Part shown: in pieces, positions 14,848 through 63,155 of the stretch
How the letters are laid out: each line of letters begins with the position of its first letter
How positions within the stretch are numbered: the stretch's first letter is position 1
NCBI GenBank assembly: GCA_028704015.1
Contig: JAQVLT010000002.1
Location: forward strand, 9,499 to 73,498
Length of the DNA stretch: 64,000 bases
Origin: Patescibacteria group bacterium
GTDB lineage: Bacteria; Patescibacteriota; Patescibacteriia; Patescibacteriales; JAQVLT01
Reading direction: 5' to 3'
Notes under the pieces: model-generated
What the model was told of the DNA's origin: nothing
Databases searched by the model: none
Seen by the model: only the letters and a program-made list of their open reading frames with translations
Translations under genes and position numbers: made by a program

Positions 14848-14870
14848 GCCTTGCCTATCGGCAGACAGGC
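14848..14870. repeat. degenerate family B palindrome
   Basis: gccttgcctatcggcagacaggc, directly after the SBP stop codon. Confidence 0.4.
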
Positions 14871-17538: not shown

Positions 17539-19236
17539 ATGGACAAAAATATTTATAAAAAAGAGATTGATGAATTGCTAAAAGTGAAGATTGGTTCGCG
17601 CCAAGATTTAATGGTAGCAAAAAGGAAAATTGCCAAGAAATATGGAATGGGAATTTTAACCAATTCTCAGATTTTGAGTTTTATTAAAAAACAAAATATC
17701 AAGAAAGAAACACCGGCATCTCGCCTTCTGGAAAATATTTTGCGTAAACGCGCGGTGCGAACGCTCTCCGGGATTGCTCCGGTCGCAGTATTAGTTAAAC
17801 CTTATAAATGTCCGGGAAAATGCGCTTATTGTCCAACAGAAAAAGACGTGCCGCAGAGTTATTTGTCAAACGAGCCGGCAGTGATGCGCGCGATTCGTTG
17901 TGATTATGATCCTTACACGCAAGTGCAAATGCGGCTTCGCGCTCTGGAAGCGAATGGACATCGGCCGGAAAAAATTGAATTGATTGTCATCGGCGGTACG
18001 TGGTCCTATTTGCCGGAAGAATATAAATTTTGGTACATCAAGGAATGTTTTCGAGCGGCGAACGAGTTTGTAAAAAATCAAAATGCAAAAATCAAAAGTC
18101 AAAATTACAATTCAAAATTAAAAACCTGCCTGCCGGTAGGCAAGGTTGAAAATTTAAAATTGAAACTTAAAAAAGAGCAGGAGAGAAATGAAAGTGCAAA
18201 ATACAGGATTATTGGAATTACGTTAGAGACCCGCCCCGATTATATTAATGAAAAAGAATTATTAGAGATGCGGGAGTTGGGTTGTACGCGCGTGGAATTG
18301 GGTGTGCAAGCGATTGATGATAAAATTTTAAATAAAAATAAACGCGGGCATGGTGTCAAAGAAATCGCGGCCGCGACAAAACTGCTGAAAGATTTCGGGT
18401 TTAAAGTAACTTATCATTTTATGCCCGGGCTTCCAGGATCAACGCCGGCCAAGGATTTAAAAATGTTTAAGCAATTATTTACTGATGAGCGCTTCCAGCC
18501 GGACCAAATAAAATTTTATCCAACCGTGGTGACGCGCGGCAGTTTGCTTTATCGTTGGTGGAAGGCAGGTAAATATAAACCATACTCAAATAAAATTTTA
18601 GAAAATTTAATTATTGCCTGCAAAAAAATCGTGCCGTCATATGTGCGAATAATTCGGTTGATTCGAGATATTCCGGGCGAGTCAATTATAGCCGGAAATC
18701 GCGTGACAAATCTGCGGCAGGTTCTAGAACAACGAGGCGTAAAGTGTAATTGTATTAGATGTAGAGAAGCACGTGGACAACAATTTACAATTAACAATTT
18801 ACAATTAACAATTCTAAAATATAAATCATCAGACGGAGAAGATTATTTTATTAGCGCGGACAGTAAAGATGGAAAAATTTTGTATGGATTTTGCCGATTG
18901 CGCCTTAAATCATCAAAACATGAAAACATTAAATCATTAAAACAAGATCGAGAAAATATGAAACTTGGTTTCGGGTACCCGAAACCAAGTTTCTTGGATG
19001 ACGCCGCGTTGATTCGGGAGTTGCATGTTTATGGAGAATTGGTGCCGGTGGGCGGTGGGAAAAAAGTTCAGCATGTTGGATTGGGAAAAAAATTAATGGC
19101 CGAAGCAGAGAGAATCGCGTATAAAAATGGTTTTAAGAAAATCGCAGTGATTGCCGGCATAGGCGTGCGTGGGTATTATCGGAAGTTAGGGTATCGACTG
19201 GAAAATAGTTATATGGTTAAGCAGTTACCTGGTTAA
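17539..19236 (+). CDS. elp3: Elp3-type radical-SAM/GNAT tRNA-modification enzyme
   Basis: Radical-SAM cluster motif CPGKCAYCP. C-terminal GNAT (HVGLGKKLMAEAERIA). Several repeat-derived in-frame inserts. Confidence 0.8.
   Translation: MDKNIYKKEIDELLKVKIGSRQDLMVAKRKIAKKYGMGILTNSQILSFIKKQNIKKETPASRLLENILRKRAVRTLSGIAPVAVLVKPYKCPGKCAYCPTEKDVPQSYLSNEPAVMRAIRCDYDPYTQVQMRLRALEANGHRPEKIELIVIGGTWSYLPEEYKFWYIKECFRAANEFVKNQNAKIKSQNYNSKLKTCLPVGKVENLKLKLKKEQERNESAKYRIIGITLETRPDYINEKELLEMRELGCTRVELGVQAIDDKILNKNKRGHGVKEIAAATKLLKDFGFKVTYHFMPGLPGSTPAKDLKMFKQLFTDERFQPDQIKFYPTVVTRGSLLYRWWKAGKYKPYSNKILENLIIACKKIVPSYVRIIRLIRDIPGESIIAGNRVTNLRQVLEQRGVKCNCIRCREARGQQFTINNLQLTILKYKSSDGEDYFISADSKDGKILYGFCRLRLKSSKHENIKSLKQDRENMKLGFGYPKPSFLDDAALIRELHVYGELVPVGGGKKVQHVGLGKKLMAEAERIAYKNGFKKIAVIAGIGVRGYYRKLGYRLENSYMVKQLPG
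18123..18147. repeat. family B palindrome inside the elp3 reading frame
   Basis: aacctgcctgccggtaggcaaggtt encodes TCLPVGKV. It sits in a ~100-nt AT-rich-armed insert (about 18076-18175). Confidence 0.65.
18960..18993. repeat. family A (GGGTACCC-core) perfect palindrome inside the elp3 reading frame
   Basis: gaaacttggtttcgggtacccgaaaccaagtttc encodes KLGFGYPKPSF. Confidence 0.7.
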
Positions 19237-27185: not shown

Positions 27186-27917
27186 ATGCGAAAAATGAGT
27201 TTCCAAAATGAAAATTATTATCATATTTATAATAGAGGTGTTGATCACCGGGATATTTTTGGCGATGCCAATGATTTTGGCAGGTTTATCAGAAGTATGA
27301 GAATAATGAATAATAACTCAAATGAAGGACAACGTGATTATGTTTTGAGAAAAATGTTTAAAAGTGGTAAATATCCGGAGCTTAGCTCTGGGTACCCAGA
27401 GCTAAGCTCCTTAACGTCTGGTCTTTTTAATATTTTTAACCAGGAATTAAGATTAGTTGTAAGGAACTATTATAATTTTGTCGAAATAATTTCTTATTGT
27501 TTAAATAAAAATCACTATCATTTATTATTAAAACAATTAATTGATAAAGGCGTTGAAAAATTTCTCCACAAGATTGGCACTAGTTATACAAATTATTTCA
27601 ATTTGAGAAGTAAGCGTTCCGGCTCTCTTTTTGAAACCACTTATAAATCTGCTTATCTCGATACCGAAGGAAAAATTATTCGCGCGTCCACCTATATCAA
27701 CGGCAACCCGGAAATTCATAAAATTTGCCGGGCGGAAAATTGGCCGTGGTCCAGTTATTTAGATTATCTGGGGTTGAGAAGCGGCACGATGTGTAATAAA
27801 GAAATAATTTTAAGTCAATTTAGGTCTATTGAAGAATATCGGAAGTTTGTTAAGATGATTATAAGGGATGAAAAGGCGATTAAAGATGAATTGGAGAAAA
27901 TTGATGATAAATATTAG
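27186..27917 (+). CDS. HUH/Y1 IS200-like (RayT-like) transposase-family protein
   Basis: YHIYNRG strand, HUH motif NHYHLLL, Tyr region STYINGNP, NWPWSSYLDY tail. Carries an internal palindrome. Confidence 0.65.
   Translation: MRKMSFQNENYYHIYNRGVDHRDIFGDANDFGRFIRSMRIMNNNSNEGQRDYVLRKMFKSGKYPELSSGYPELSSLTSGLFNIFNQELRLVVRNYYNFVEIISYCLNKNHYHLLLKQLIDKGVEKFLHKIGTSYTNYFNLRSKRSGSLFETTYKSAYLDTEGKIIRASTYINGNPEIHKICRAENWPWSSYLDYLGLRSGTMCNKEIILSQFRSIEEYRKFVKMIIRDEKAIKDELEKIDDKY
27377..27410. repeat. family A palindrome inside the RayT-like ORF
   Basis: ggagcttagctctgggtacccagagctaagctcc is a perfect 34-nt palindrome. It encodes PELSSGYPELSS. Confidence 0.7.
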
Positions 27918-27950
27918 AAACTTAGTTTCGGGTACCCGAAACTAAGTTTC
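27917..27950. repeat. family A palindrome abutting the stop codon of the RayT-like gene
   Basis: gaaacttagtttcgggtacccgaaactaagtttc is a perfect 34-nt palindrome. Confidence 0.7.
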
Positions 27951-27961
27951 GTTAATTAAAA

Positions 27962-30097
27962 ATGTCCGACAAAAAACAACAACTCAAAGATCTTCTGAAA
28001 ATTCATTACGGCTATGATTCTTTTCGTCCTGGGCAGGAAAAAGCGCTGGATAATATTTTGGCCGGTAAAAGTTCAATTATTATTATGCCAACTGGCGGCG
28101 GCAAGTCTTTAATTTACCAATTACCTTCTTTAATCTTGGAAGGTGTCACTATTGTCATTTCTCCTTTGATTGCCTTGATGAAAGATCAGGTTGATTCGCT
28201 TACTCGCATCGGCATTCCGGCAACTTTTATTAATTCTTCCATTGGCATGGCAGAAGCTTTGGAACGTTTGGAAGCGGTAAAGAGCGGACATTATAAAATT
28301 CTCTACATCGCGCCAGAAAGATTTTATAATGAAGATTTTATTAAAGCGCTTAAAGAAATCGAAGTTAGTTTATTTGCAATTGATGAAGCGCATTGTATCA
28401 GCCAGTGGGGACATGATTTTCGCCCCAGTTATTTGAAATTAAAATATGCGGTTGAGCAGGCGGGAAATCCTACGGTAGTGGCTTTGACAGCCACGGCCAC
28501 TCCTGAGGTAAAAGAAGACATCGCGAAACAAATAGGATTGGTTGATCCCGAATTTATAGTCACCGGTTTTGGCCGGCCGAATTTACAGTTTGGCGTGATT
28601 CAAGCGAAAGACGCGGAGAAGTTCAGGCTGGTGGTTGATGCTGTTAACAGCGCGCCTGATGGAGCGGGAATAATTTACACGGGCACGAGAAACAAGGCGG
28701 AAGAAATCGCCCAAATACTTCTGGATCAGGGAATTGACGCGGTGGTATATCACGGCGGTATGGATGCGGAAGATAGAAAATGGGTGCAGGAAAATTTTAT
28801 GGCGAACAAAGCCAAAGTAATTGTCGCCACTAACGCTTTTGGGCTTGGCATCGACAAGCGCGACATCCGTTTCGTGATTCATTTTGAAATGCCCGGAACG
28901 ATTGAGGCTTATTATCAGGAGGCAGGACGAGCCGGGCGTGATGGCAAGCCGAGTTTTTGCCTATTATTTTATCACCCGCGCGATCGCTATCTTCAAGAAT
29001 TTTTTATCAAAGGCGACAATCCGCCGCCAAACATAGTTTTAGAAATTTATGAACTGCTTTTGAATTACGAAACCGACAATATTTTAATTACTTATGCTGA
29101 ATTGGCGGAAGGTTTGTCGGAAAAATTGCCGGAGATGGCGATTGGCACAAGTTTAAAAATTTTGGAACGTGAGGGATACATAACTCGTCCGAACGAGAAA
29201 GTCGGGAGCGCGTACTTGGAGTTAATTTCACGGCCCGAAGCAATTTTAGAAACGCTCGGGAAGCGCGCGAAAAATAGTATAGAAATTTTTAATAAATTAG
29301 TCGTTCGCTATCACGATGATATGACTAATGGTTGGCGTTTTAATCCCGATGAAGTGGCCGGCATTTTGGAAATTAACAAAGAACCGCTCATGCGTTTGGT
29401 GCGAAAAATTGCTGATGCCGGTTTGGTAAAATATGAACCGCCTTTTCGCGGCACAGAAATTAATATTCTTAAACGAGTAGATTCAAGCGAAATTAAAATT
29501 GATTTTTCCGCCATGAAAGCGAAACTAAGAAACGCCTACGATAAGTTAGATAGGATTGAAGACTATATTTACCATTTTGACTGCCGGCAGAAATATATTT
29601 TGGATTATTTTGGTGACGCGAACGCGCATGTCTGCGGCAAATGTGATAATTGTTTGACCGGTTCGGGCTATAAAAGAAAAAATCAGGCGCCGGAAAGAAA
29701 AAAAGAGGAAGAAAAATTTGATTATAAAAAATTTAGAAAGAAAAAAATAGCGGATGAGAGTGAGTTTGAAATTGAACCGCCAAAGAAGGGTGGGCTAAAT
29801 ACAAAATTAACCCAGCTGGAAACTTTGGACTTGTTTGTTAAAGGATCAAGTATTGATGAAATTGCCGAAGAGCGTGAACTTAAGCGTGATACGGTTATAA
29901 ATCACCTGTGTTTTTTAATTGAGAAAAAATTAATCAAAGATATTGATAAATTAGTAACACCGGGAATACAGAAAAAGATTTTGAAAGCGGTTGAGAAAGT
30001 TGGTGTTGAAAAATTAACACCGATCAAAGAAGAACTCGGAGACGAAGTTGGCTGGGATGAGATAAAGTTGGTGGTGGCGAAAGAACGAACGAAATAG
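27962..30097 (+). CDS. recQ: ATP-dependent DNA helicase RecQ
   Basis: [23 protein letters not shown], Zn-binding C...CGKCDNC, and a C-terminal HTH extension. Confidence 0.9.
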
Positions 30098-30121: not shown

Positions 30122-30227
30122 AGGCGGACAAGATGGCCGGGCTATTTTATCAAAAAGCCCCATTAATGGGGCTTAATTTTTAGCCCAATCCATTTATGAT
30201 TGGGCTTGCCGGCAGGCAGGTTGGGCG
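30122..30227. repeat. two-hairpin intergenic element (family G), copy carrying a family B insertion
   Basis: Aligns by eye with 52214-52291 (gggctatttt..aaaagccc..gggctt..ttagcccaa.ccatttat..ttgggc). Has 21 extra nt at 30206-30226. Confidence 0.55.
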
Positions 30228-30323
30228 ACTTAATCAGCTTGAAATTATTGGTTAAAAATGATAAGTTTACTATATAAATAAGTCATCTTTTTAAGCTTCG
30301 CGAGAGTCTCTTAAATAAGACTT

Positions 30324-41147: not shown

Positions 41148-41513
41148 TTATTTTTTATTTTTGCTATTAACTTTATTTATCATCGCAGATAGAATATTTT
41201 TTAATTCCAAAGATTCTTTTTTTATTTCATTCATCAGAGGCTTTAAATTAGGATTTGCTTCTTCAATAAGTTCAAGCCAATGTGATGTTTCTTTAGCTTC
41301 TTTTCTAGATATTTTTAGTCTATGCACAAAATCTTTGTCGCCCAAAGCATCATTGGCTTCCCGATAGTTAGCGCCAATAGAGCCAGCCGAGCCGACAACT
41401 TGGCTTATTAGACGGATATTAATAGCATTTTGTGGTGTGGCTTTACAAAGTCGTATTACTCTTTTAGCAAATTCAGTAGTTCTGACTTCAAAATCAAATA
41501 TTTTTTCCTCCAT
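41148..41513 (-). CDS. four-helix-bundle protein (23S rRNA intervening-sequence protein family)
   Basis: Start moved to MEEKIFDFEV. Family pattern SAGSIGANYREANDA...F..RLKISRKEAKETSHWLELI. Confidence 0.75.
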   Translation of the reverse strand: MEEKIFDFEVRTTEFAKRVIRLCKATPQNAINIRLISQVVGSAGSIGANYREANDALGDKDFVHRLKISRKEAKETSHWLELIEEANPNLKPLMNEIKKESLELKNILSAMINKVNSKNKK

Positions 41514-41523
41514 AAAAATTTGG

Positions 41524-42414
41524 TTATTGTATCTTGGAATTTGTTTCTTGCTTGCCAACAAGCAAGCTCGCTCCAATAACCCCCGCCATATTCCCTAGTT
41601 TTCCCACAAGCACCTTCACTTCTTTTCGGGCGCGGGAATTCATAATATATTTTTCCATTTCTTTTTTCGCTGCGGGCAGGAATAATTCTGCTGAACCGGT
41701 TACGCCGCCACCAATAATAATCGCTTCGGGATTCAAAATATTTATAATATTGGCAAACGCCAAGCCAAGATTCCGGCCAATTTCTTGGTAAGTTTTCTCC
41801 GCCAAAGGATCGGCGTGAAAAGCCCGTTCCGCCAATTCTATGGGATTTTTTCCGTTTAATTGATGGTACACTTCTTCCAGCTCTATTGGTTTTTCAAAAT
41901 TTGTAATCATGCGGCCAATTTCTCCGGCATTGCCAAAAACGCCCTGATAAATCTCGCCGTTTACCCACCAGGAGCCGCCAATGCCGGTGCCAATAATCAC
42001 GCCAAAAGCATTATTGAATTTTTTTCCTGCGCCCATTTTCATTTCGCCGCGCAAAAAACAAGCAGTGTCATTATCCATAGTTACCGGAAGATTATATTTC
42101 TCTTCGATCTTCTCGGCGATTTTTACGCCGTTAATCAAGGGGATGTTCGGGGATTTGAGCATTCGTTTTTCCGCCAAATCAATCACGCCGGCAATGCCAA
42201 CACCAATGCCAGATATTTTTATCTTGTCTTTCTTTGCTTGTTCCACGAGCGGTTCCACTAGGGCGTTAAGCATGACAAAAAAATGGTCCAAAGTGTCTTT
42301 GGGGGTAGCCAAGAGATAGTCGGCGATAATTTTTTCGCCATCAAATAATCCGGCGCGCATGTTCGTGCCGCCGATGTCGAGGCCGATGGTGTAGGTTTTT
42401 GTTTGTTTGGACAT
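41524..42414 (-). CDS. ROK-family sugar kinase (glucokinase-like)
   Basis: IGLDIGGTNMRAGL ATP motif, ROK signature region, GGGV. Confidence 0.8.
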   Translation of the reverse strand: MSKQTKTYTIGLDIGGTNMRAGLFDGEKIIADYLLATPKDTLDHFFVMLNALVEPLVEQAKKDKIKISGIGVGIAGVIDLAEKRMLKSPNIPLINGVKIAEKIEEKYNLPVTMDNDTACFLRGEMKMGAGKKFNNAFGVIIGTGIGGSWWVNGEIYQGVFGNAGEIGRMITNFEKPIELEEVYHQLNGKNPIELAERAFHADPLAEKTYQEIGRNLGLAFANIINILNPEAIIIGGGVTGSAELFLPAAKKEMEKYIMNSRARKEVKVLVGKLGNMAGVIGASLLVGKQETNSKIQ

Positions 42415-43534: not shown

Positions 43535-43629
43535 CCTCTCCCCGACTCTCCGCCAGCTGGCGGATCGTCATCCCTCTCCTAATTAGCCTGCCTGTCCGGT
43601 AGGCAGGGAGAGGGGTTGGGGGTGAGGGA
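43535..43629. repeat. composite repeat: family C hairpin with family B palindrome nested in its loop
   Basis: ccctctcc taattag [cctgcctgtccggtaggcagg] gagagggg, plus outer arms cctctcccc / ggggtgaggg and an extra gccagctggc palindrome. Confidence 0.65.
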
Positions 43630-44318: not shown

Positions 44319-44931
44319 CCTGTCTGCCGGCAGGCAGGCTAAATAAATTCAAAATACTAAATCTAAATGATCAAAACAGCGACTAATTATTACGATTTGG
44401 AAGAAAGAACGTTAAAATTCGCTAAAATGGTAAGAGAATTTATTAAGAAATTGCCGAAAACAATTTCTAATATAGAAGATAGTAAACAATTAGCTCGTTC
44501 ATCCGGATCGGTTGGCGCTAACTACATTGAAGCTAACGAAGCATTAAGCAAGAAAGACTTTGTCATGAGAATAAAAATTTGCCGCAAAGAAGCGAAAGAA
44601 TCAAAATATTGGCTGTTACTAATTGATTGCCAAAAAGAATTAATACTAGAACGTGACACCTTAATTAAAGAAGCAACCGAACTAACTAAAATATTTGGAG
44701 CAATTTTAGAGAAATGCAAATAAAATAGTTGTATAATAGTGTTTTGAGTTTAAATAATTAGAATTTTGAATTTGTTTAGGATTTAGAGTTTAGTGCTTAG
44801 GGTTTCAGGAATGTTATAGCAGGAAGCGCAGGAATTAACTCTAATTTTTTCACGAATCACGCTCACCTTAGAAAAGAAAATTTAAAATTTAGTAATTTAT
44901 CATTCAATTAACCTGCCTGCCGGCAGACAGG
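44319..44931. mobile_element. 613-bp cassette: four-helix-bundle gene between inverted family B palindromes and AT-rich subterminal inverted repeats
   Basis: 44319-44338 (cctgtctgccggcaggcagg) is the exact reverse complement of 44912-44931. Inner arms (ctaaat.../aaattcaaaat versus attttgaattt/...atttag) match the gene-less element at 58564-58695. Confidence 0.5.
44367..44723 (+). CDS. four-helix-bundle protein (23S rRNA intervening-sequence protein family)
   Basis: SSGSVGANYIEANEALSKKDFVMRIKICRKEAKESKYWLLLI. Confidence 0.75.
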   Translation: MIKTATNYYDLEERTLKFAKMVREFIKKLPKTISNIEDSKQLARSSGSVGANYIEANEALSKKDFVMRIKICRKEAKESKYWLLLIDCQKELILERDTLIKEATELTKIFGAILEKCK

Positions 44932-51215: not shown

Positions 51216-52184
51216 ATGAATTTTGAGATTAAATTCCAAAAAGCCTGGGCGAAAATCAAAGAGGCGAAAAATATTTTGGTAGTTACTCATGTGCGGCCGG
51301 ATGGCGATGCGCTTGCTTCACTATGCGTGATGGTTGAATTATTAATTTCCCAGAATAAAAATTATACAGCCTTTTGCGCCTGGGAAGTAGATAAAATTTT
51401 TTCTTACTTGCCGCATTTTGAAAAAGTTATTAATAAAAAAGAATTAATTAATTTTAATGATTACGACCTTATCATTTCTCTTGATTGCGGAAGTATTGAC
51501 CGTACCGGTTTGGCAGAAGAAATAAAAAATAGAGACAAAAAACAATTTTTTTTGGAAATTGACCACCATCAAAAGATTGAAAATATATCCGATCTGGAAA
51601 TAAGAGATTCGGCTATGTCAGCCACGGCGGAAGCGCTTTATAATTTCTTTAAAAATAATAAAATCAGAATCAATAAAAATATTGCCACCTGCATTTTGAC
51701 GGGGATCCTCACTGATACTGCCAATTTTCTCTATCCCTCTACTTCCGATCAGACAATCAATATCGCTTCGGAAATGCTGGTGCGCGGCGCTCGTTTCCCG
51801 GAAATAGTTCATAAAACTTGGTACAATAAAAGCCTGCCCTCTATGAAATTATGGGGCCTGGCACTGAGCAATTTAAAAATAAATGAGAAGTATAATTTTG
51901 CTTTTTCAATATTGACTCTGGAAGAAATAAAAAGCATCGGCGGGAATGATGACATCTACGATTCAATTGTTGGCTTCCTGAGTAATCTTAATAATGTTCA
52001 GGGCGTACTGCTGCTTCGCGAGGAAGAGGGAGGAAAGCTTAAAGGCAGTTTGCGTTCCAGCCATCCGACTGCCGACATTTCCCGTCTGGCCCGCTTCTTT
52101 GGCGGCGGCGGACACCCGAAATCATCGGGATTTTTGGTTGAAGGAAAGCTGGAAAAAGTCGGAAAAAACTATGTTATTAGTTAA
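51216..52184 (+). CDS. nrnA: DHH/DHHA1 phosphoesterase (NrnA-like)
   Basis: HVRPDGDALAS, DHH motif IDHHQ, GGGGHPKSSG. Confidence 0.8.
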   Translation: MNFEIKFQKAWAKIKEAKNILVVTHVRPDGDALASLCVMVELLISQNKNYTAFCAWEVDKIFSYLPHFEKVINKKELINFNDYDLIISLDCGSIDRTGLAEEIKNRDKKQFFLEIDHHQKIENISDLEIRDSAMSATAEALYNFFKNNKIRINKNIATCILTGILTDTANFLYPSTSDQTINIASEMLVRGARFPEIVHKTWYNKSLPSMKLWGLALSNLKINEKYNFAFSILTLEEIKSIGGNDDIYDSIVGFLSNLNNVQGVLLLREEEGGKLKGSLRSSHPTADISRLARFFGGGGHPKSSGFLVEGKLEKVGKNYVIS

Positions 52185-52213: not shown

Positions 52214-52291
52214 AGGCGGACAGGGCTATTTTGAAAAGCCCAATTATTAGGGCTTTTATCTTTTTTAGCCCAAACCATTTATAGTTGGGCG
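52214..52291. repeat. two-hairpin intergenic element (family G), copy without the family B insertion
   Basis: aaagccc aattatt agggcttt and gcccaa accatttatag ttgggc hairpins. Aligns with 30122-30227. Confidence 0.55.
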
Positions 52292-52305
52292 TAATCTGAT
52301 AGAAT

Positions 52306-52333
52306 TTGACATTAAACTACAATAATTTATACT
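52306..52333 (+). promoter_or_regulatory. sigma70-type promoter upstream of a GC-rich orphan gene
   Basis: TTGACA 52306-52311, 16-nt spacer, TATACT. Confidence 0.45.
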
Positions 52334-56687: not shown

Positions 56688-57086
56688 CACATAACACATA
56701 GCATATGAATTTTCATGATAGCTTAAAAATAAAAATGCATTTGTATGTTAAACAAGTATATAAAGTGACAAAAAATTTTCCGCGTGATGAGTTGTACGGC
56801 GTTACCTCGCAATTCAGAAGAGCGGCGATGTCTGTTATTTTAAATTATATAGAAGGTTATGCTCGAAGAAAGGGTAATAATTGTAAAGTGTATAAAAATT
56901 TTTTAGAGATATCTTACGGCTCGCTTCGAGAGACAAAATATCTAATTTATTTTTCTTTCTCTGAAAATTATATCAATCAAAAAAATTATAATTTTTTAAT
57001 TAGCCAAGCCGATGAGCTAGGCAAAATGATCTGGACCACAATAAAAAGCAACTAATTTGCTATATGTTATGTGTTCCATGATATGC
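56681..57086. mobile_element. cassette: four-helix-bundle gene between inverted family D motifs
   Basis: Left catatagcacataacacatagcatatg; right gctatatgttatgtgttccatgatatgc. They share cacataaca in opposite orientation. The repeat is imperfect. Confidence 0.4.
56705..57055 (+). CDS. four-helix-bundle protein (23S rRNA intervening-sequence protein family)
   Basis: FPRDELYGVTSQFRRAAMSVILNYIEGYAR...SYGSLRETKYLIYF. Confidence 0.7.
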   Translation: MNFHDSLKIKMHLYVKQVYKVTKNFPRDELYGVTSQFRRAAMSVILNYIEGYARRKGNNCKVYKNFLEISYGSLRETKYLIYFSFSENYINQKNYNFLISQADELGKMIWTTIKSN

Positions 57087-61874: not shown

Positions 61875-62495
61875 ATGTCCGTGGAAACCCATATTTATGA
61901 TAAGCGTTTTTTTAAGAATACCATCAAATTGGAAGATGATTCTGCGGCGGCCGCAGTTTCTATTTTGATAAAATATTTTTTGCCCAGATCAGTTATTGAT
62001 ATTGGTTGCGGTTGTGGAATTTATTTGAAAGAATTTTCAAATCAAGGCGTAGAAATTTTTGGATACGACGGCGCTCCGGCAGCGCTTGAATCTTCACTGG
62101 TTGGCGACAAAATCAAGCTTCATGATTTATGCGTGCCATTGGTAATAAATAAAAAATTTGATCTTTGCCTCTGCGTTGAAGTCGCTGAACATTTACCGCC
62201 CGAATACGCTAATATTTTAGTTGAGACTTTGGCAAATTTATCTGACATTATTATTTTTTCTGCCGCCACTCCGGGCCAAGGTCCGCGTTCCATCGGACAT
62301 ATCAACGAACAGCCGCCGGAATATTGGCTAGAAAAATTTCAATCTAAAAATTTTATTTTTGACCAAAATATATCTTTAAAGATAAAAAAAGAAATGGAAG
62401 AAAAGGGTGTTGTCTGGTGGATTACTAAGAATTTAATGATATTTAAAAATGACCCGTGTCAAACCCGAGCCGGAAAAAATTTACCACATTTATAA
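61875..62495 (+). CDS. class I SAM-dependent methyltransferase
   Basis: Motif I IDIGCGCG. The 3' tail overlaps the 5' fragment of the disrupted RayT-like gene in another frame. Confidence 0.65.
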   Translation: MSVETHIYDKRFFKNTIKLEDDSAAAAVSILIKYFLPRSVIDIGCGCGIYLKEFSNQGVEIFGYDGAPAALESSLVGDKIKLHDLCVPLVINKKFDLCLCVEVAEHLPPEYANILVETLANLSDIIIFSAATPGQGPRSIGHINEQPPEYWLEKFQSKNFIFDQNISLKIKKEMEEKGVVWWITKNLMIFKNDPCQTRAGKNLPHL

Positions 62496-62515
62496 CCTGC
62501 CTACCGGCAGGCAGG
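62496..62515. repeat. family B palindrome interrupting the YHIYN|RG motif
   Basis: cctgcctaccggcaggcagg. Removing these 20 nt restores one continuous ORF. Confidence 0.7.
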
Positions 62516-62660
62516 TCGTGGCGTTGAAAAAAGAAAGATATTTATGGATAAATGGGATTATATTAGATTTTTAGAAAGTACGAGAGAGTTTAATTGTGAT
62601 GAACCGATTGGCAGTCTCTATTTAAAAAAATATCTCGCCCAAAAAAACAAAGTTAGCCAA

Positions 62661-62692
62661 GGTGTCGGACACCCTATAGGGTGTCCGACACC
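62661..62692. repeat. perfect 32-nt palindrome inside the RayT-like reading frame
   Basis: ggtgtcggacaccctatagggtgtccgacacc encodes GVGHPIGCPTP. It occupies the same position as the family A palindrome in the 27186 paralogue. Confidence 0.7.
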
Positions 62693-63155
62693 TAAACAAG
62701 AGATTTTAGTTGAATATTTAGCTTATTGTCTACTGCCTAATCATTTTCATTTTTTAATTATAGAAAAATCAGAGGGAGGTATCCCAAAATTCATGAAAAG
62801 GCTAAGCGGTGGCTATACTAATTATTTTAACAAAAAATATCTTCGCACCGGTTCATTGTTCCAAGGGAAATATAAAATATTTGAAGTAAAGTATAGTCAT
62901 TTTTTAAAATTATCCGTTTATGTTAATTGTAATGCCGAAGTGCATAAAATCAACCGAGCGGAAAATTGGCCATGGTCAAGCTATTTGGATTATATCAATG
63001 AAAGAAACGGAACTTTATGCAATTAAGAATTAATTTTGGAAGAATTTGGCAGCCGAAATAATTTTAAAAAATTTTGCCAAACAATTTTACCTGATATAAT
63101 AAAAAATAAAGAGTTATCGGAAAATTTAACTGAATAATTAAATTGCAAAGGGTTC

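Follow-up and report, generated by a model that had tools for sequence, protein, structure and literature searches.

The window analysed here is a stretch of 64,000 nucleotides from a Patescibacteria group bacterium (assembly GCA_028704015.1, contig JAQVLT010000002.1, positions 9,499 to 73,498). Downstream of recQ it contains an element with a terminator-like hairpin, a second hairpin and an additional short block, and downstream of nrnA a paralogue of this element without the block. The block contains a copy of a 20-base palindrome, CCTGCCTGCCGGCAGGCAGG, hereafter P, which consists of two half-sites, CCTGCCTGCC|GGCAGGCAGG. A fuzzy search found seven copies of P in the window, all slightly decayed. 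The relevant features are as follows (coordinates of the window; strand given where assigned):

30122..30227 (+), host element downstream of recQ, with a terminator-like hairpin (30155-30174), a second hairpin (30181-30205) and the inserted block
30205..30220, P copy in a 16-nt form, cTTGCCGGCAGGCAGG, with one CCTG unit missing and one substitution, flanked by TTGGGC at 30200-30205 and 30221-30226; the 21 nt extra relative to the nrnA copy are 30206-30226
52214..52291 (+), empty paralogue of the host element downstream of nrnA, with a terminator-like hairpin (52234-52257) and a second hairpin (52267-52290)
62496..62515, P copy CCTGCCTACCGGCAGGCAGG, splitting codon N16 of a Y1 (IS200-like) transposase gene by exactly 20 nt, with no duplication
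62449..63026 (+), Y1_Tnp gene remnant interrupted by P, also lacking about 35 C-terminal residues and therefore a likely pseudogene, of which NCBI annotates only the 160-aa tail
43587..43607, P copy of 21 nt (CCTGCCTGTCCGGTAGGCAGG), nested in the loop of another palindrome, CCCTCTCC-TAATTA-GGAGAGGG, followed by GTTGGGGGTGAGGG
18125..18144, P copy CCTGCCTGCCGGTAGGCAAG, in frame inside the ELP3-family radical-SAM gene (reads CLPVGK), in a hypervariable linker
44319..44338, P copy CCTGTCTGCCGGCAGGCAGG, 28 nt upstream of a 23S_rRNA_IVP (four-helix-bundle) gene
44912..44931, P copy CCTGCCTGCCGGCAGACAGG, downstream of the same IVP gene and 31 nt upstream of the next gene
14849..14869, degenerate P copy CCTTGCCTATCGGCAGACAGG (4 differences), intergenic

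Filled and empty sites in the window

The initial annotation had proposed that the recQ and nrnA elements differ by the insertion of a palindromic unit of only 20-21 nt, and that this unit is mobile. An affine-gap global alignment of 30122-30260 against 52214-52325 scored 95.4, compared with 18.3 +/- 5.4 (maximum 36.6) for shuffled sequences, and contained one 21-nt gap opposite 30206-30226, TTGCCGGCAGGCAGGTTGGGC, whose placement is ambiguous by rotation because TTGGGC occurs on both sides. The recQ copy also has a second, 8-nt extra block (AGATGGCC). Default MAFFT did not place the gap cleanly, so the result depends on using a low gap-extension cost. The two hairpins are shared, and no third copy of the host element exists in the window. 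The palindrome family itself is real, as CCTGCC-N8-GGCAGG with up to 1 mismatch gave 4 hits against 0.05 expected, and the half-site CCGGCAGGCAGG gave 9 hits against 0.08 expected. The recQ copy is not a full unit, but its 16-nt form recurs elsewhere (loci L055, L089, L106, L214 and L215; L numbers denote loci retrieved from other genomes and viruses).

The nested copy at 43587-43607 and the frameshifting copy at 62496-62515, also noted initially, were both confirmed. Deleting exactly 62496-62515 restores the invariant YHIYNRGV motif of a Y1 transposase. The host element of the nested copy carries P in L102, L210 and L211 as well. For the copy in ELP3, an orthologue (L171) lacks it and has a 9-residue gap at this position. 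Only the ELP3 site could be compared with an orthologue, since the closest metagenome relatives for the recQ and nrnA intergenic regions are only 63-74% identical at the protein level and the gene order after recQ differs. A search against Rfam identified only three tRNAs in the window.

Distribution, insertion and site preference of P

P is not local to this genome. A partial scan of species genomes gave 128 copies in 120 loci from about 11 phyla, including cultured Bacteroidota (Winogradskyella, Olivibacter, Flagellimonas, Longitalea and Flavivirga), and a further 49 viral loci carry it. By contrast, no full copy was found in 9.6 Gb of plasmids and cultured phages. Annotation of a P-rich phage contig showed terminase and adaptor genes but no candidate mobilising gene, and all-against-all BLAST of the flanks of about 190 copies found no longer master element around solo copies.

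Eight within-locus filled/empty pairs in other genomes show exact 20-nt insertion with no target duplication. In L056, L227, L097 (two copies), L025 and L046, orphan and intact tRNA pairs in one locus differ by exactly P, and in L006 and L075 tandem-repeat units are split by exactly P. The 6-bp target duplication suggested by the TTGGGC repeat at recQ is therefore an exception. Among 179 copies, the duplication length is 0 nt in 101, 1 nt in 61, 2 nt in 10, and 4, 4, 7, 7, 7, 8 and 14 nt in the remaining 7, and the three of these longer cases examined by eye lie in repetitive flanks. Likewise, the A/T-rich 5′ flanks that had been noted initially reflect the composition of this genome. Across 358 half-flanks, the only rule is that the base just outside the unit is almost never A (7%), which means T on the 5′ side, and there is no other consensus at -8..-1 or +1..+8. 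However, P is over-represented in loops and dyad centres of hairpin-forming DNA: a perfect stem of at least 6 bp surrounds the junction in 14.6% of copies against 2.9% of control positions, and a stem of at least 8 bp in 5.7% against 0.2%. Copies are also nested at the centre of P itself in L020, L026, L032, L063, L069 and L114.

In-frame copies are 21 nt long (P plus one G) and read LPAGRQ. In-frame insertion was found in TrpRS, FtsK, ScpB, a histidine kinase, membrane glycosyltransferase-like proteins and ELP3. TrpRS has an exact 7-residue gap opposite GLPAGRQ when aligned to PDB 2a4m, whereas in RfbB (L032) the insert lies in a variable loop and the alignment to PDB is not crisp. In Daviesbacteria, 10 of 120 TrpRS orthologues carry the insert at one codon, scattered over the tree, and Fitch parsimony needs at least 7 gains or losses. 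Four carriers (TrpRS sequences P0121, P0127, P0144 and P0230) are each nearer to non-carriers than to other carriers, for example 90.1% against 83.2% for P0127. In the four carrier sequences and one empty orthologue compared, the flanks look, as judged by eye, as diverged as the host genes and are not shared among carriers. By contrast, apparent ORFs restored by deleting P in GC-rich loci are spurious reading frames. Taken together, the inference that a unit of only 20-21 nt behaves as an insertion and is mobile is supported, more strongly than could be known from the window alone.

A GIY-YIG nuclease gene at tRNA genes

P is not tied to the Y1 genes of the window. A jackhmmer search of the ORFs of the 120 P-selected loci found a Y1 gene in one locus only, 0.8-1.6 kb from P, and no P occurs in nine loci around close Y1 homologues. 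A link to 23S_rRNA_IVP genes is weak, as only the window and L075 show it. Instead, P is linked to a small gene encoding a GIY-YIG nuclease of the Slx1/YhbQ (UPF0213) type next to tRNA genes. In the P-selected loci, 8 of 9 GIY-YIG ORFs lie within 150 nt of P. In the reverse direction, three GIY-YIG proteins were chosen blind to P, from a Salinimicrobium isolate, a Patescibacteria MAG and a soil lineage. All seven places examined have P, most of those copies being perfect, and each place has a tRNA-Leu gene 3-6 nt after the stop codon, or in L253 upstream of it, although this test covers only three protein clusters. Overall, 16 of 186 P copies lie within 300 nt of a tRNA gene, against 2.5% of random positions. 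Named sources for the nuclease clade are CPR, Bacteroidota and Omnitrophota, the groups that dominate the range of P; a nuclease of the clade is present in Mucilaginibacter.

The nuclease proteins are 77-88 amino acids long and comprise the catalytic domain only. All listed relatives match PF01541, and the profile hits UPF0213 (1ywl, 1zg2) and SLX1 structures, while NCBIfam grpIintron_endo scores 19 bits against a cutoff of 56. The gene sits at tRNA genes in L056, L227, L097, L025 and L253-L260, and related contigs (88-97% nucleotide identity) encoding the identical nuclease differ in P-bearing modules. The tRNA pieces in L021 and L056 are not interrupted tRNA genes, since deleting P does not restore a tRNA; they are orphan duplicated 5′ parts.

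We therefore consider it somewhat more likely than not that P is a miniature palindromic element that codes for nothing, has been inserted into many unrelated sites, and has its conserved, perfect master copies in a selfish cassette. In this model, the cassette consists of a 78-82-aa GIY-YIG nuclease gene inserted at a tRNA gene and duplicates part of the tRNA so that an intact tRNA survives, with P exactly where the duplicated piece is broken, in the D-loop, the anticodon arm, or the junction of the T-stem and T-loop. The seven copies in the window, including the one in the recQ terminator element, would be solo derivatives, as all are mutated and no nuclease gene lies nearby. In coding regions only rare 21-nt products survive. 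We infer that the nuclease recognises P, either as a dimer on the palindrome or as an extruded hairpin, and causes it to be copied or pasted into single-stranded loops, with host ligation or repair finishing the job, and that conserved tRNA targets and phages carry the system between phyla. However, no experiment or sequence here shows that the nuclease binds, cuts or moves P. About 90% of P copies have no nuclease gene or tRNA nearby, and the window has none, so any action must be in trans, or the copies are ancient. GIY-YIG enzymes form no covalent intermediate, so clean insertion without duplication needs an unspecified joining step, and one clean mechanism does not predict the minority of copies with duplications of 4-14 nt or the 5-6 nt at recQ. 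Further, one orphan tRNA beside a GIY-YIG remnant (L058) carries a different 33-nt palindrome at the same D-loop site, and therefore the cassette may need only some hairpin rather than P specifically. P could instead be a regulatory hairpin, ending 17-19 nt before the ATG in four unrelated cassettes, and its spread could then have another cause.

Alternative origins and related elements

Alternative to the nuclease cassette, P might be a REP-like hairpin moved as single-stranded DNA by a HUH Y1 transposase (a RAYT/IS200-like enzyme), such as the two encoded in the window, with GIY-YIG cassettes merely collecting copies because tRNA-derived DNA is a good target. P has the size and GC-rich hairpin of a REP (-8 kcal/mol), exact insertion without target duplication is the hallmark of Y1 peel-and-paste transposition, REP insertions inside RAYT genes are documented for subclass 2.4 (PMC6006769), and other palindromes in this genome do appear tied to Y1 genes. 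This is nevertheless unlikely, since every Y1 gene of this family carries its own 32-38-nt in-frame palindrome unrelated to P, perfect P has no GTAG or CGTC tag (GTAG occurs only inside the 3′ arm of the T13 variant), there is no conserved target tetranucleotide, and P disrupts one of the two Y1 genes of the window rather than flanking it. It is about equally doubtful that P has no dedicated enzyme and is filler DNA captured at breaks, or copied by template switching where replication stalls at hairpins, its palindromy making it a frequent donor. The enrichment at hairpin loops and dyad centres, the lack of a target consensus, the variable duplications, the extra G in some copies and the loss or gain of CCTG units by slippage are in line with such a process, but it does not explain why one 20-mer stays identical in about 11 phyla while individual copies decay, nor why perfect copies sit at fixed places in GIY-YIG cassettes, and P ends share no microhomology with the target sites.

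Solo copies could also be scars of whole cassettes that inserted with a duplication and were later lost by recombination between the duplicated segments, in which case P never moves on its own. Recombination between the repeats to the right of P in the type-A cassette architecture would leave a solo P in the target, L046 and the pseudo-tRNA in L255 look like such remnants, and two P copies flank a small cassette gene in the window. However, a cassette would have had to enter and leave essential single-copy genes such as TrpRS, leaving a clean in-frame 21 nt, at least 4-7 separate times, and likewise terminator loops and the centre of P itself, and no shared flanking remnant is seen around solo copies, so we regard this as improbable. 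Less likely still, P might be a selected functional motif, such as a protein-binding site, an RNA-processing or stability hairpin, or an uptake-type signal, that accumulates by selection or biased recombination. The spacing to the ATG is constant at 17-19 nt in four GIY-YIG cassettes, copies lie 28-31 nt upstream of two window genes, and the common variant keeps a G.T pair. Yet the filled/empty pairs show whole-unit insertion rather than point-mutational origin, copies lie inside coding regions, orphan tRNA pieces and a disrupted gene, and the window copies are decaying. An artefact such as adaptor dimers, which would produce a perfect head-to-head 10+10 palindrome, is effectively excluded, because copies carry individual point mutations, slipped arms and nested forms, are in frame in conserved genes, occur in cultured isolates, a single-cell genome, complete chromosomes and assemblies from many laboratories, and were not found in the plasmid and phage records.

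Among known elements, REP/REPIN sequences with their RAYT (TnpA_REP) transposases are likewise short GC-rich palindromes in many copies that code for nothing, are presumed to be moved in trans by one nuclease gene per genome, and can sit inside the nuclease gene (PMC3116915; PMC6006769). P, however, is found inside genes and tRNA-derived DNA, keeps one sequence across phyla instead of co-evolving with a lineage-specific RAYT, and is linked to a GIY-YIG rather than a HUH nuclease. Small dispersed repeats (SDR4-6; Elhai et al. 2008, Genome Res 18:1484, cited in PMC3116915 and PMC5861425) are reported only in Nostocaceae (PMC5861425). None of the 120 P loci is cyanobacterial. Free-standing GIY-YIG homing endonuclease genes (T4 seg/mob genes, I-TevI type) are also small selfish genes lodged in or next to a highly conserved gene, with structural polymorphism between relatives, but here the protein has no DNA-binding domain, the target tRNA is partly duplicated rather than split by an intron, and a 20-nt palindrome marks the break and also occurs alone at many other sites. 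Rickettsia palindromic elements are tolerated in frame inside protein-coding genes, including essential ones, but are 100-150 bp and confined to one genus, whereas P adds 7 codons and no Rickettsiales are among the loci. MITEs are non-autonomous with inverted-repeat ends, but are longer than 50 bp, carry a fixed-length target duplication and derive from an IS with the same ends, none of which applies to P. Mitochondrial GC clusters and palindromic microsatellites of fungi (e.g., PMC7218506) are small GC-rich palindromes spreading in AT-rich genomes alongside homing-endonuclease genes, but are organelle-restricted and differ in sequence, and no defined partner gene or tRNA-loop junction is known for them. 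In the literature searched, no paper contained the 20-mer, LPAGRQ, PACRQAG or CLPAGR, and nothing was found on GIY-YIG cassettes at bacterial tRNA genes.

It is possible, though only tentatively proposed, that P and its ~80-aa Slx1/YhbQ-like gene form a previously unrecognised class of mobile element, in which a structure-specific nuclease pastes a bare 20-nt hairpin into single-stranded loops of hairpin-forming DNA, and which crosses phylum boundaries by homing into universally conserved tRNA loops and by riding on phages, seeding in-frame LPAGRQ inserts in essential proteins along the way. P would then be the smallest mobile DNA with an identified partner gene, setting a lower size limit of 20 nt for such elements, and GIY-YIG enzymes of the structure-specific Slx1/YhbQ type would be added to the HUH enzymes thought to move bacterial palindromic repeats. 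An enzyme that recognises a 20-bp palindrome or hairpin could also be useful as a tool. If this is right, it would explain a recurrent LPAGRQ/PACRQAG peptide in proteins of uncultured bacteria, part of the fragmented gene calls and orphan tRNA pieces seen in CPR, Bacteroidota and Omnitrophota genomes, and why thousands of tiny "GIY-YIG nuclease family" genes include members sitting next to tRNA genes.

The recQ and nrnA elements and the seven copies of P in the window

The window is 40.5% G+C, and its gene content, including T4SS pilins, 23S_rRNA_IVP genes and an ELP3-type radical-SAM gene, fits the Candidate Phyla Radiation (CPR). The features discussed below are as follows.

27962-30097: recQ, followed downstream by the first of two related elements
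51216-52184: nrnA, followed downstream by the second
30206-30226: the 21-nt block of the recQ element, TTGCCGGCAGGCAGGTTGGGC
62496-62515: copy of P interrupting the Y1 transposase gene Y1a
43587-43607: copy of P nested in another palindrome
18125-18144: copy of P in frame in ELP3

An affine-gap global alignment of the two related elements scores 95.4, against 18.3 +/- 5.4 for shuffled sequences, and has a single 21-nt gap opposite 30206-30226. However, the placement of this gap is ambiguous by rotation because TTGGGC flanks the block on both sides, and default MAFFT misplaced it. The first hairpin of both copies is terminator-like, and the window holds no third copy of this element. The palindrome, called P here, has the consensus CCTGCCTGCC followed by GGCAGGCAGG, which can be written (CCTG)2-CC-GG-(CAGG)2. 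The window has seven copies against fewer than 0.1 expected, none of which is perfect. The recQ copy is the 16-nt form cTTGCCGGCAGGCAGG, lacking one CCTG unit, a form that recurs in other genomes.

The initial annotation had pointed to two further cases, a frameshifting copy and a nested copy, as evidence that the unit is mobile. Removing exactly 62496-62515 joins ...IYHIYN to RGVEKRKIF... and gives a 185-aa protein that passes Pfam Y1_Tnp. In an alignment with ten homologues plus the second Y1 protein of the window (Y1b), the YHIYNRG stretch is almost fully conserved and is contiguous in every sequence. This is therefore a clean 20-nt insertion without duplication, although the gene also lacks its C-terminus and is probably dead. 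The copy at 43587-43607 sits in the loop of CCCTCTCC-TAATTA-GGAGAGGG. This host palindrome (window 43572-43628), CCCTCTCC..GGAGAGGGGTTGGGGGTGAGG, recurs in distant genomes and phage contigs (loci L102, L210, L211, L080 and L017; L numbers denote loci outside the window) and carries P at three different positions; in the four copies that carry the T13 variant, P has the same orientation relative to the host palindrome. A second short palindrome, TCCGCCAGCTGGCGGA (window 43549-43564), lies within the same nested composite as P and is also shared between phyla (L014, L022).

The copy at 18125-18144 lies in a linker that is absent from the solved Dehalococcoides protein, and among four ELP3 orthologues at 65–67% identity, the one in L171 has a 9-residue gap where the window reads TCLPVGK. 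Notably, this linker after the radical-SAM core (window 18070-18170, and the ELP3 genes of L124 and L125) is a hot spot for unrelated in-frame palindromic inserts in different lineages, such as PHVILSVAKNLE, HGILHSEASEFRMT and STCPPAPGFGRRE. Three 23S_rRNA_IVP (four-helix-bundle, Avd-like) genes also lie in the 64 kb (41148-41576 on the reverse strand, 44367-44723 and 56705-57055), flanked by AT-rich 7–9-nt tandem repeats, and copies of P bracket the middle one.

Distribution of P and its insertion sites

P is not a local family. A degenerate pattern was scanned over one genome per species, for which about 9 hits are expected by chance for the whole collection. By record title, the loci comprise 41 Bacteroidota, 30 CPR, 9 Omnitrophota, 8 Planctomycetes/PVC, 8 labelled Gammaproteobacteria, 8 delta-proteobacterial or Desulfobacterota, 3 Nitrospirota, 2 each of Chloroflexi, Bdellovibrionales and Ignavibacteria, 1 Stahlbacteria and 6 unclassified. 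However, some of these taxon labels are unreliable, as the record titles of L098 and other "uncultured Gammaproteobacteria" TPA assemblies conflict with their content; at least one such label is wrong, since the nearest homologues of L098 are Daviesbacteria and its TrpRS is 72–84% identical to Daviesbacteria proteins. The set includes seven cultured isolates, a single-cell genome and complete chromosomes, which excludes an artefact, as do the point-mutated, slipped and nested forms. A complete scan of IMG/VR found 49 loci, and one phage contig carrying a terminase gene has six copies. By contrast, no full copy exists in 7.3 Gb of plasmids or 2.3 Gb of cultured phages. Relatives of the window organism are poor in P, with 2 copies in 512 kb, and abundance is therefore lineage-specific.

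Within-locus comparisons give exact boundaries. Tandem-repeat units are split by exactly P in L006 and L075, and duplicated tRNA pieces differ from the intact tRNA by exactly P in L056, L227, L097 (two copies), L025 and L046, none with a target duplication. Among 179 non-redundant copies, 101 have no flanking repeat and 61 have 1 nt, whereas seven have 4–14 nt, three of which (L110, L187, L193), examined by eye, lie in repetitive flanks. The TTGGGC repeat at recQ, which the initial annotation suggested may be a 6-bp target duplication, belongs to this minority. Sites are enriched in loops of other hairpins: a perfect stem of at least 6 bp surrounds the junction in 14.6% of copies against 2.9% of controls, and for stems of at least 8 bp the figures are 5.7% and 0.2%. 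These sites include terminator loops and the centre of P itself, in L020, L026, L032, L063, L069 and L114. In one viral tRNA-Met (L216, 2239-2330), P occupies the variable loop, and ARAGORN still predicts a 92-nt tRNA, as if P mimicked a long variable arm.

In real genes P is read through, almost always as x-LPAGRQ-x, for example in FtsK, TrpRS, ScpB, a histidine kinase, membrane glycosyltransferase-like proteins and RfbB, and these inserts must be 21 nt long. TrpRS of L098 aligns to PDB 2a4m with an exact 7-residue gap opposite GLPAGRQ. Among 120 Daviesbacteria orthologues, ten carry an insert at this codon, of which eight read G/SLPAGRQ and two are decayed to A/TSSGQV, and on a neighbour-joining tree they need at least 7 changes. 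The orthologues P0121, P0127, P0144 and P0230 are each closer to non-carriers than to any other carrier (84.0 vs 76.6%, 90.1 vs 83.2%, 84.7 vs 80.6% and 80.5 vs 73.4%, respectively). DNA from four carriers and one empty relative shows the same junction, ..GAAGG, P and TTTTC.. against ..GGGGAT followed by ATTTTTCC.., where the insert is P plus one G; judged by eye, the flanks are as diverged as the host genes and are not shared among the carriers. This pattern means repeated gain, repeated precise loss, or very short-tract conversion, and in any of these cases the site is polymorphic for the unit. Another scattered in-frame insert, KRILT-LRQAQGENxx-KRILT, sits near the N-terminus of TrpRS orthologues P0122, P0140, P0142, P0205 and P0214; it carries a target duplication of about 15 nt and is thus a different small element with a different insertion signature.

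Y1 and GIY-YIG genes as candidate partners of P

The obvious candidate for moving P was the pair of Y1 genes in the window, but it fails. Every Y1_Tnp gene of this CPR family carries its own perfect 32–38-nt palindrome, in frame and at the same position (window 62660-62693 and 27377-27410; L175, 10178-10215; L179, 1853-1885; L183, 3662-3695; L136, reverse strand). The sequence differs in each gene, but the palindrome is kept by paired changes; in Y1a it encodes GVGHPIGCPTP. In the window, a 34-nt palindrome family, GAAACTTRGTTTCGGGTACCCGAAACYAAGTTTC, has one copy in frame in ELP3 (18960-18993; KLGFGYPKPSF) that is absent from orthologues, one at the 3' end of the Y1b gene (27917-27950), and a diverged one inside Y1b (27377-27410), and it looks like the REP-type partner of Y1b. 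These palindromes, not P, look like the cognate repeats of the Y1 genes, and nine loci around close Y1a homologues have no P. The Y1b-recQ gene pair (window 27186-30097) is conserved in a relative with 64% RecQ identity (L136), where a GTAG...CTAC palindrome lies between the two genes, suggesting a domesticated Y1 nuclease working with a helicase.

Unexpectedly, P is linked to a small GIY-YIG gene. In the P-selected loci, 8 of 9 GIY-YIG ORFs lie within 150 nt of P, and most of them lie next to a tRNA gene. In what we call the type A architecture, the tRNA from position 1 to a loop is followed by P, the next 8–40 nt of the tRNA, the ATG, GIY-YIG and stop, and then the intact tRNA, as in L056 (Lys), L227, L097 (Leu) and L025. 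In type B, the intact tRNA is followed by GIY-YIG, the 5' strand of the T-stem, P, and then TTCGAWTCC and the tRNA 3' end, as in L253 and the second gene in L259. More broadly, small GIY-YIG genes are inserted at tRNA genes (Leu, Lys, Val, Arg) with 30–100 nt of the tRNA duplicated (L056, L227, L097, L025, L046, L058, L202 and L253-L260), and the orphan copy always carries a palindromic insert in a loop. However, in L058 this is a different 33-nt palindrome at the same D-loop site. In L227 (850-960), the tRNA copy downstream of the GIY-YIG gene continues after GGTTGGCT with a long structured-looking insert and no tRNA is predicted, which may be an intron in the anticodon loop.

The link was also tested in reverse, starting from the nuclease. 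The GIY-YIG profile finds at least 7360 proteins, whose named sources are CPR, Bacteroidota and Omnitrophota, matching the groups that dominate the range of P. Three proteins were followed: P0294, from the isolate Salinimicrobium sediminis; P0253, from a Patescibacteria MAG; and P0277, from soil, with six places. All seven places examined have P, most copies being perfect, and each also has a tRNA-Leu gene 3–6 nt after the stop codon, or in L253 upstream of the gene. In the type A cassettes (L254, the L255 family, L227 and L056), P ends 17–19 nt before the ATG. Related contigs (88–97% nucleotide identity) encode the identical P0277 protein but differ in structure: L255 has a pseudo-tRNA bearing two P copies, L259 has a second GIY-YIG gene and a tRNA 3' piece carrying P, and L256 has a 24-nt slipped P. 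The nuclease profile matches UPF0213 proteins and the structure-specific nuclease SLX1, and does not match intron-type homing endonucleases. Overall, 16 of 186 P copies lie within 300 nt of a tRNA gene, against 2.5% of random positions.

Origin of solo copies and relation to known elements

Individual copies decay, yet the consensus is identical across phyla, and new copies must therefore keep coming from a constrained source. On present evidence, that source is the GIY-YIG/tRNA cassettes, which hold perfect copies at fixed positions. We therefore read P as the cis hairpin of this cassette, and the seven copies in the window, including the one in the recQ terminator element, as solo derivatives. 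It is an inference that the nuclease recognises P and causes its transfer into loops; a structure-specific Slx1-like enzyme fits the loop preference, but nothing here shows catalysis. Alternatively, P might be moved by a Y1-type single-strand mechanism, be captured at breaks independently of any enzyme, represent scars left by lost cassettes, or be a regulatory hairpin, and these rivals remain.

P resembles the SDRs of Nostoc, which appear to be 21–27-nt units that nest; those are reported only in Nostocaceae. It resembles RPEs in tolerating translation, and free-standing GIY-YIG homing genes in its cassette. No paper in the literature searched contains the sequence or its peptides. P works like a REP or REPIN with its RAYT, but lacks two defining features of that family, the GTAG tag and a cognate Y1 gene, and there is a substantial chance that the hairpin-plus-GIY-YIG pairing is a new class of element.
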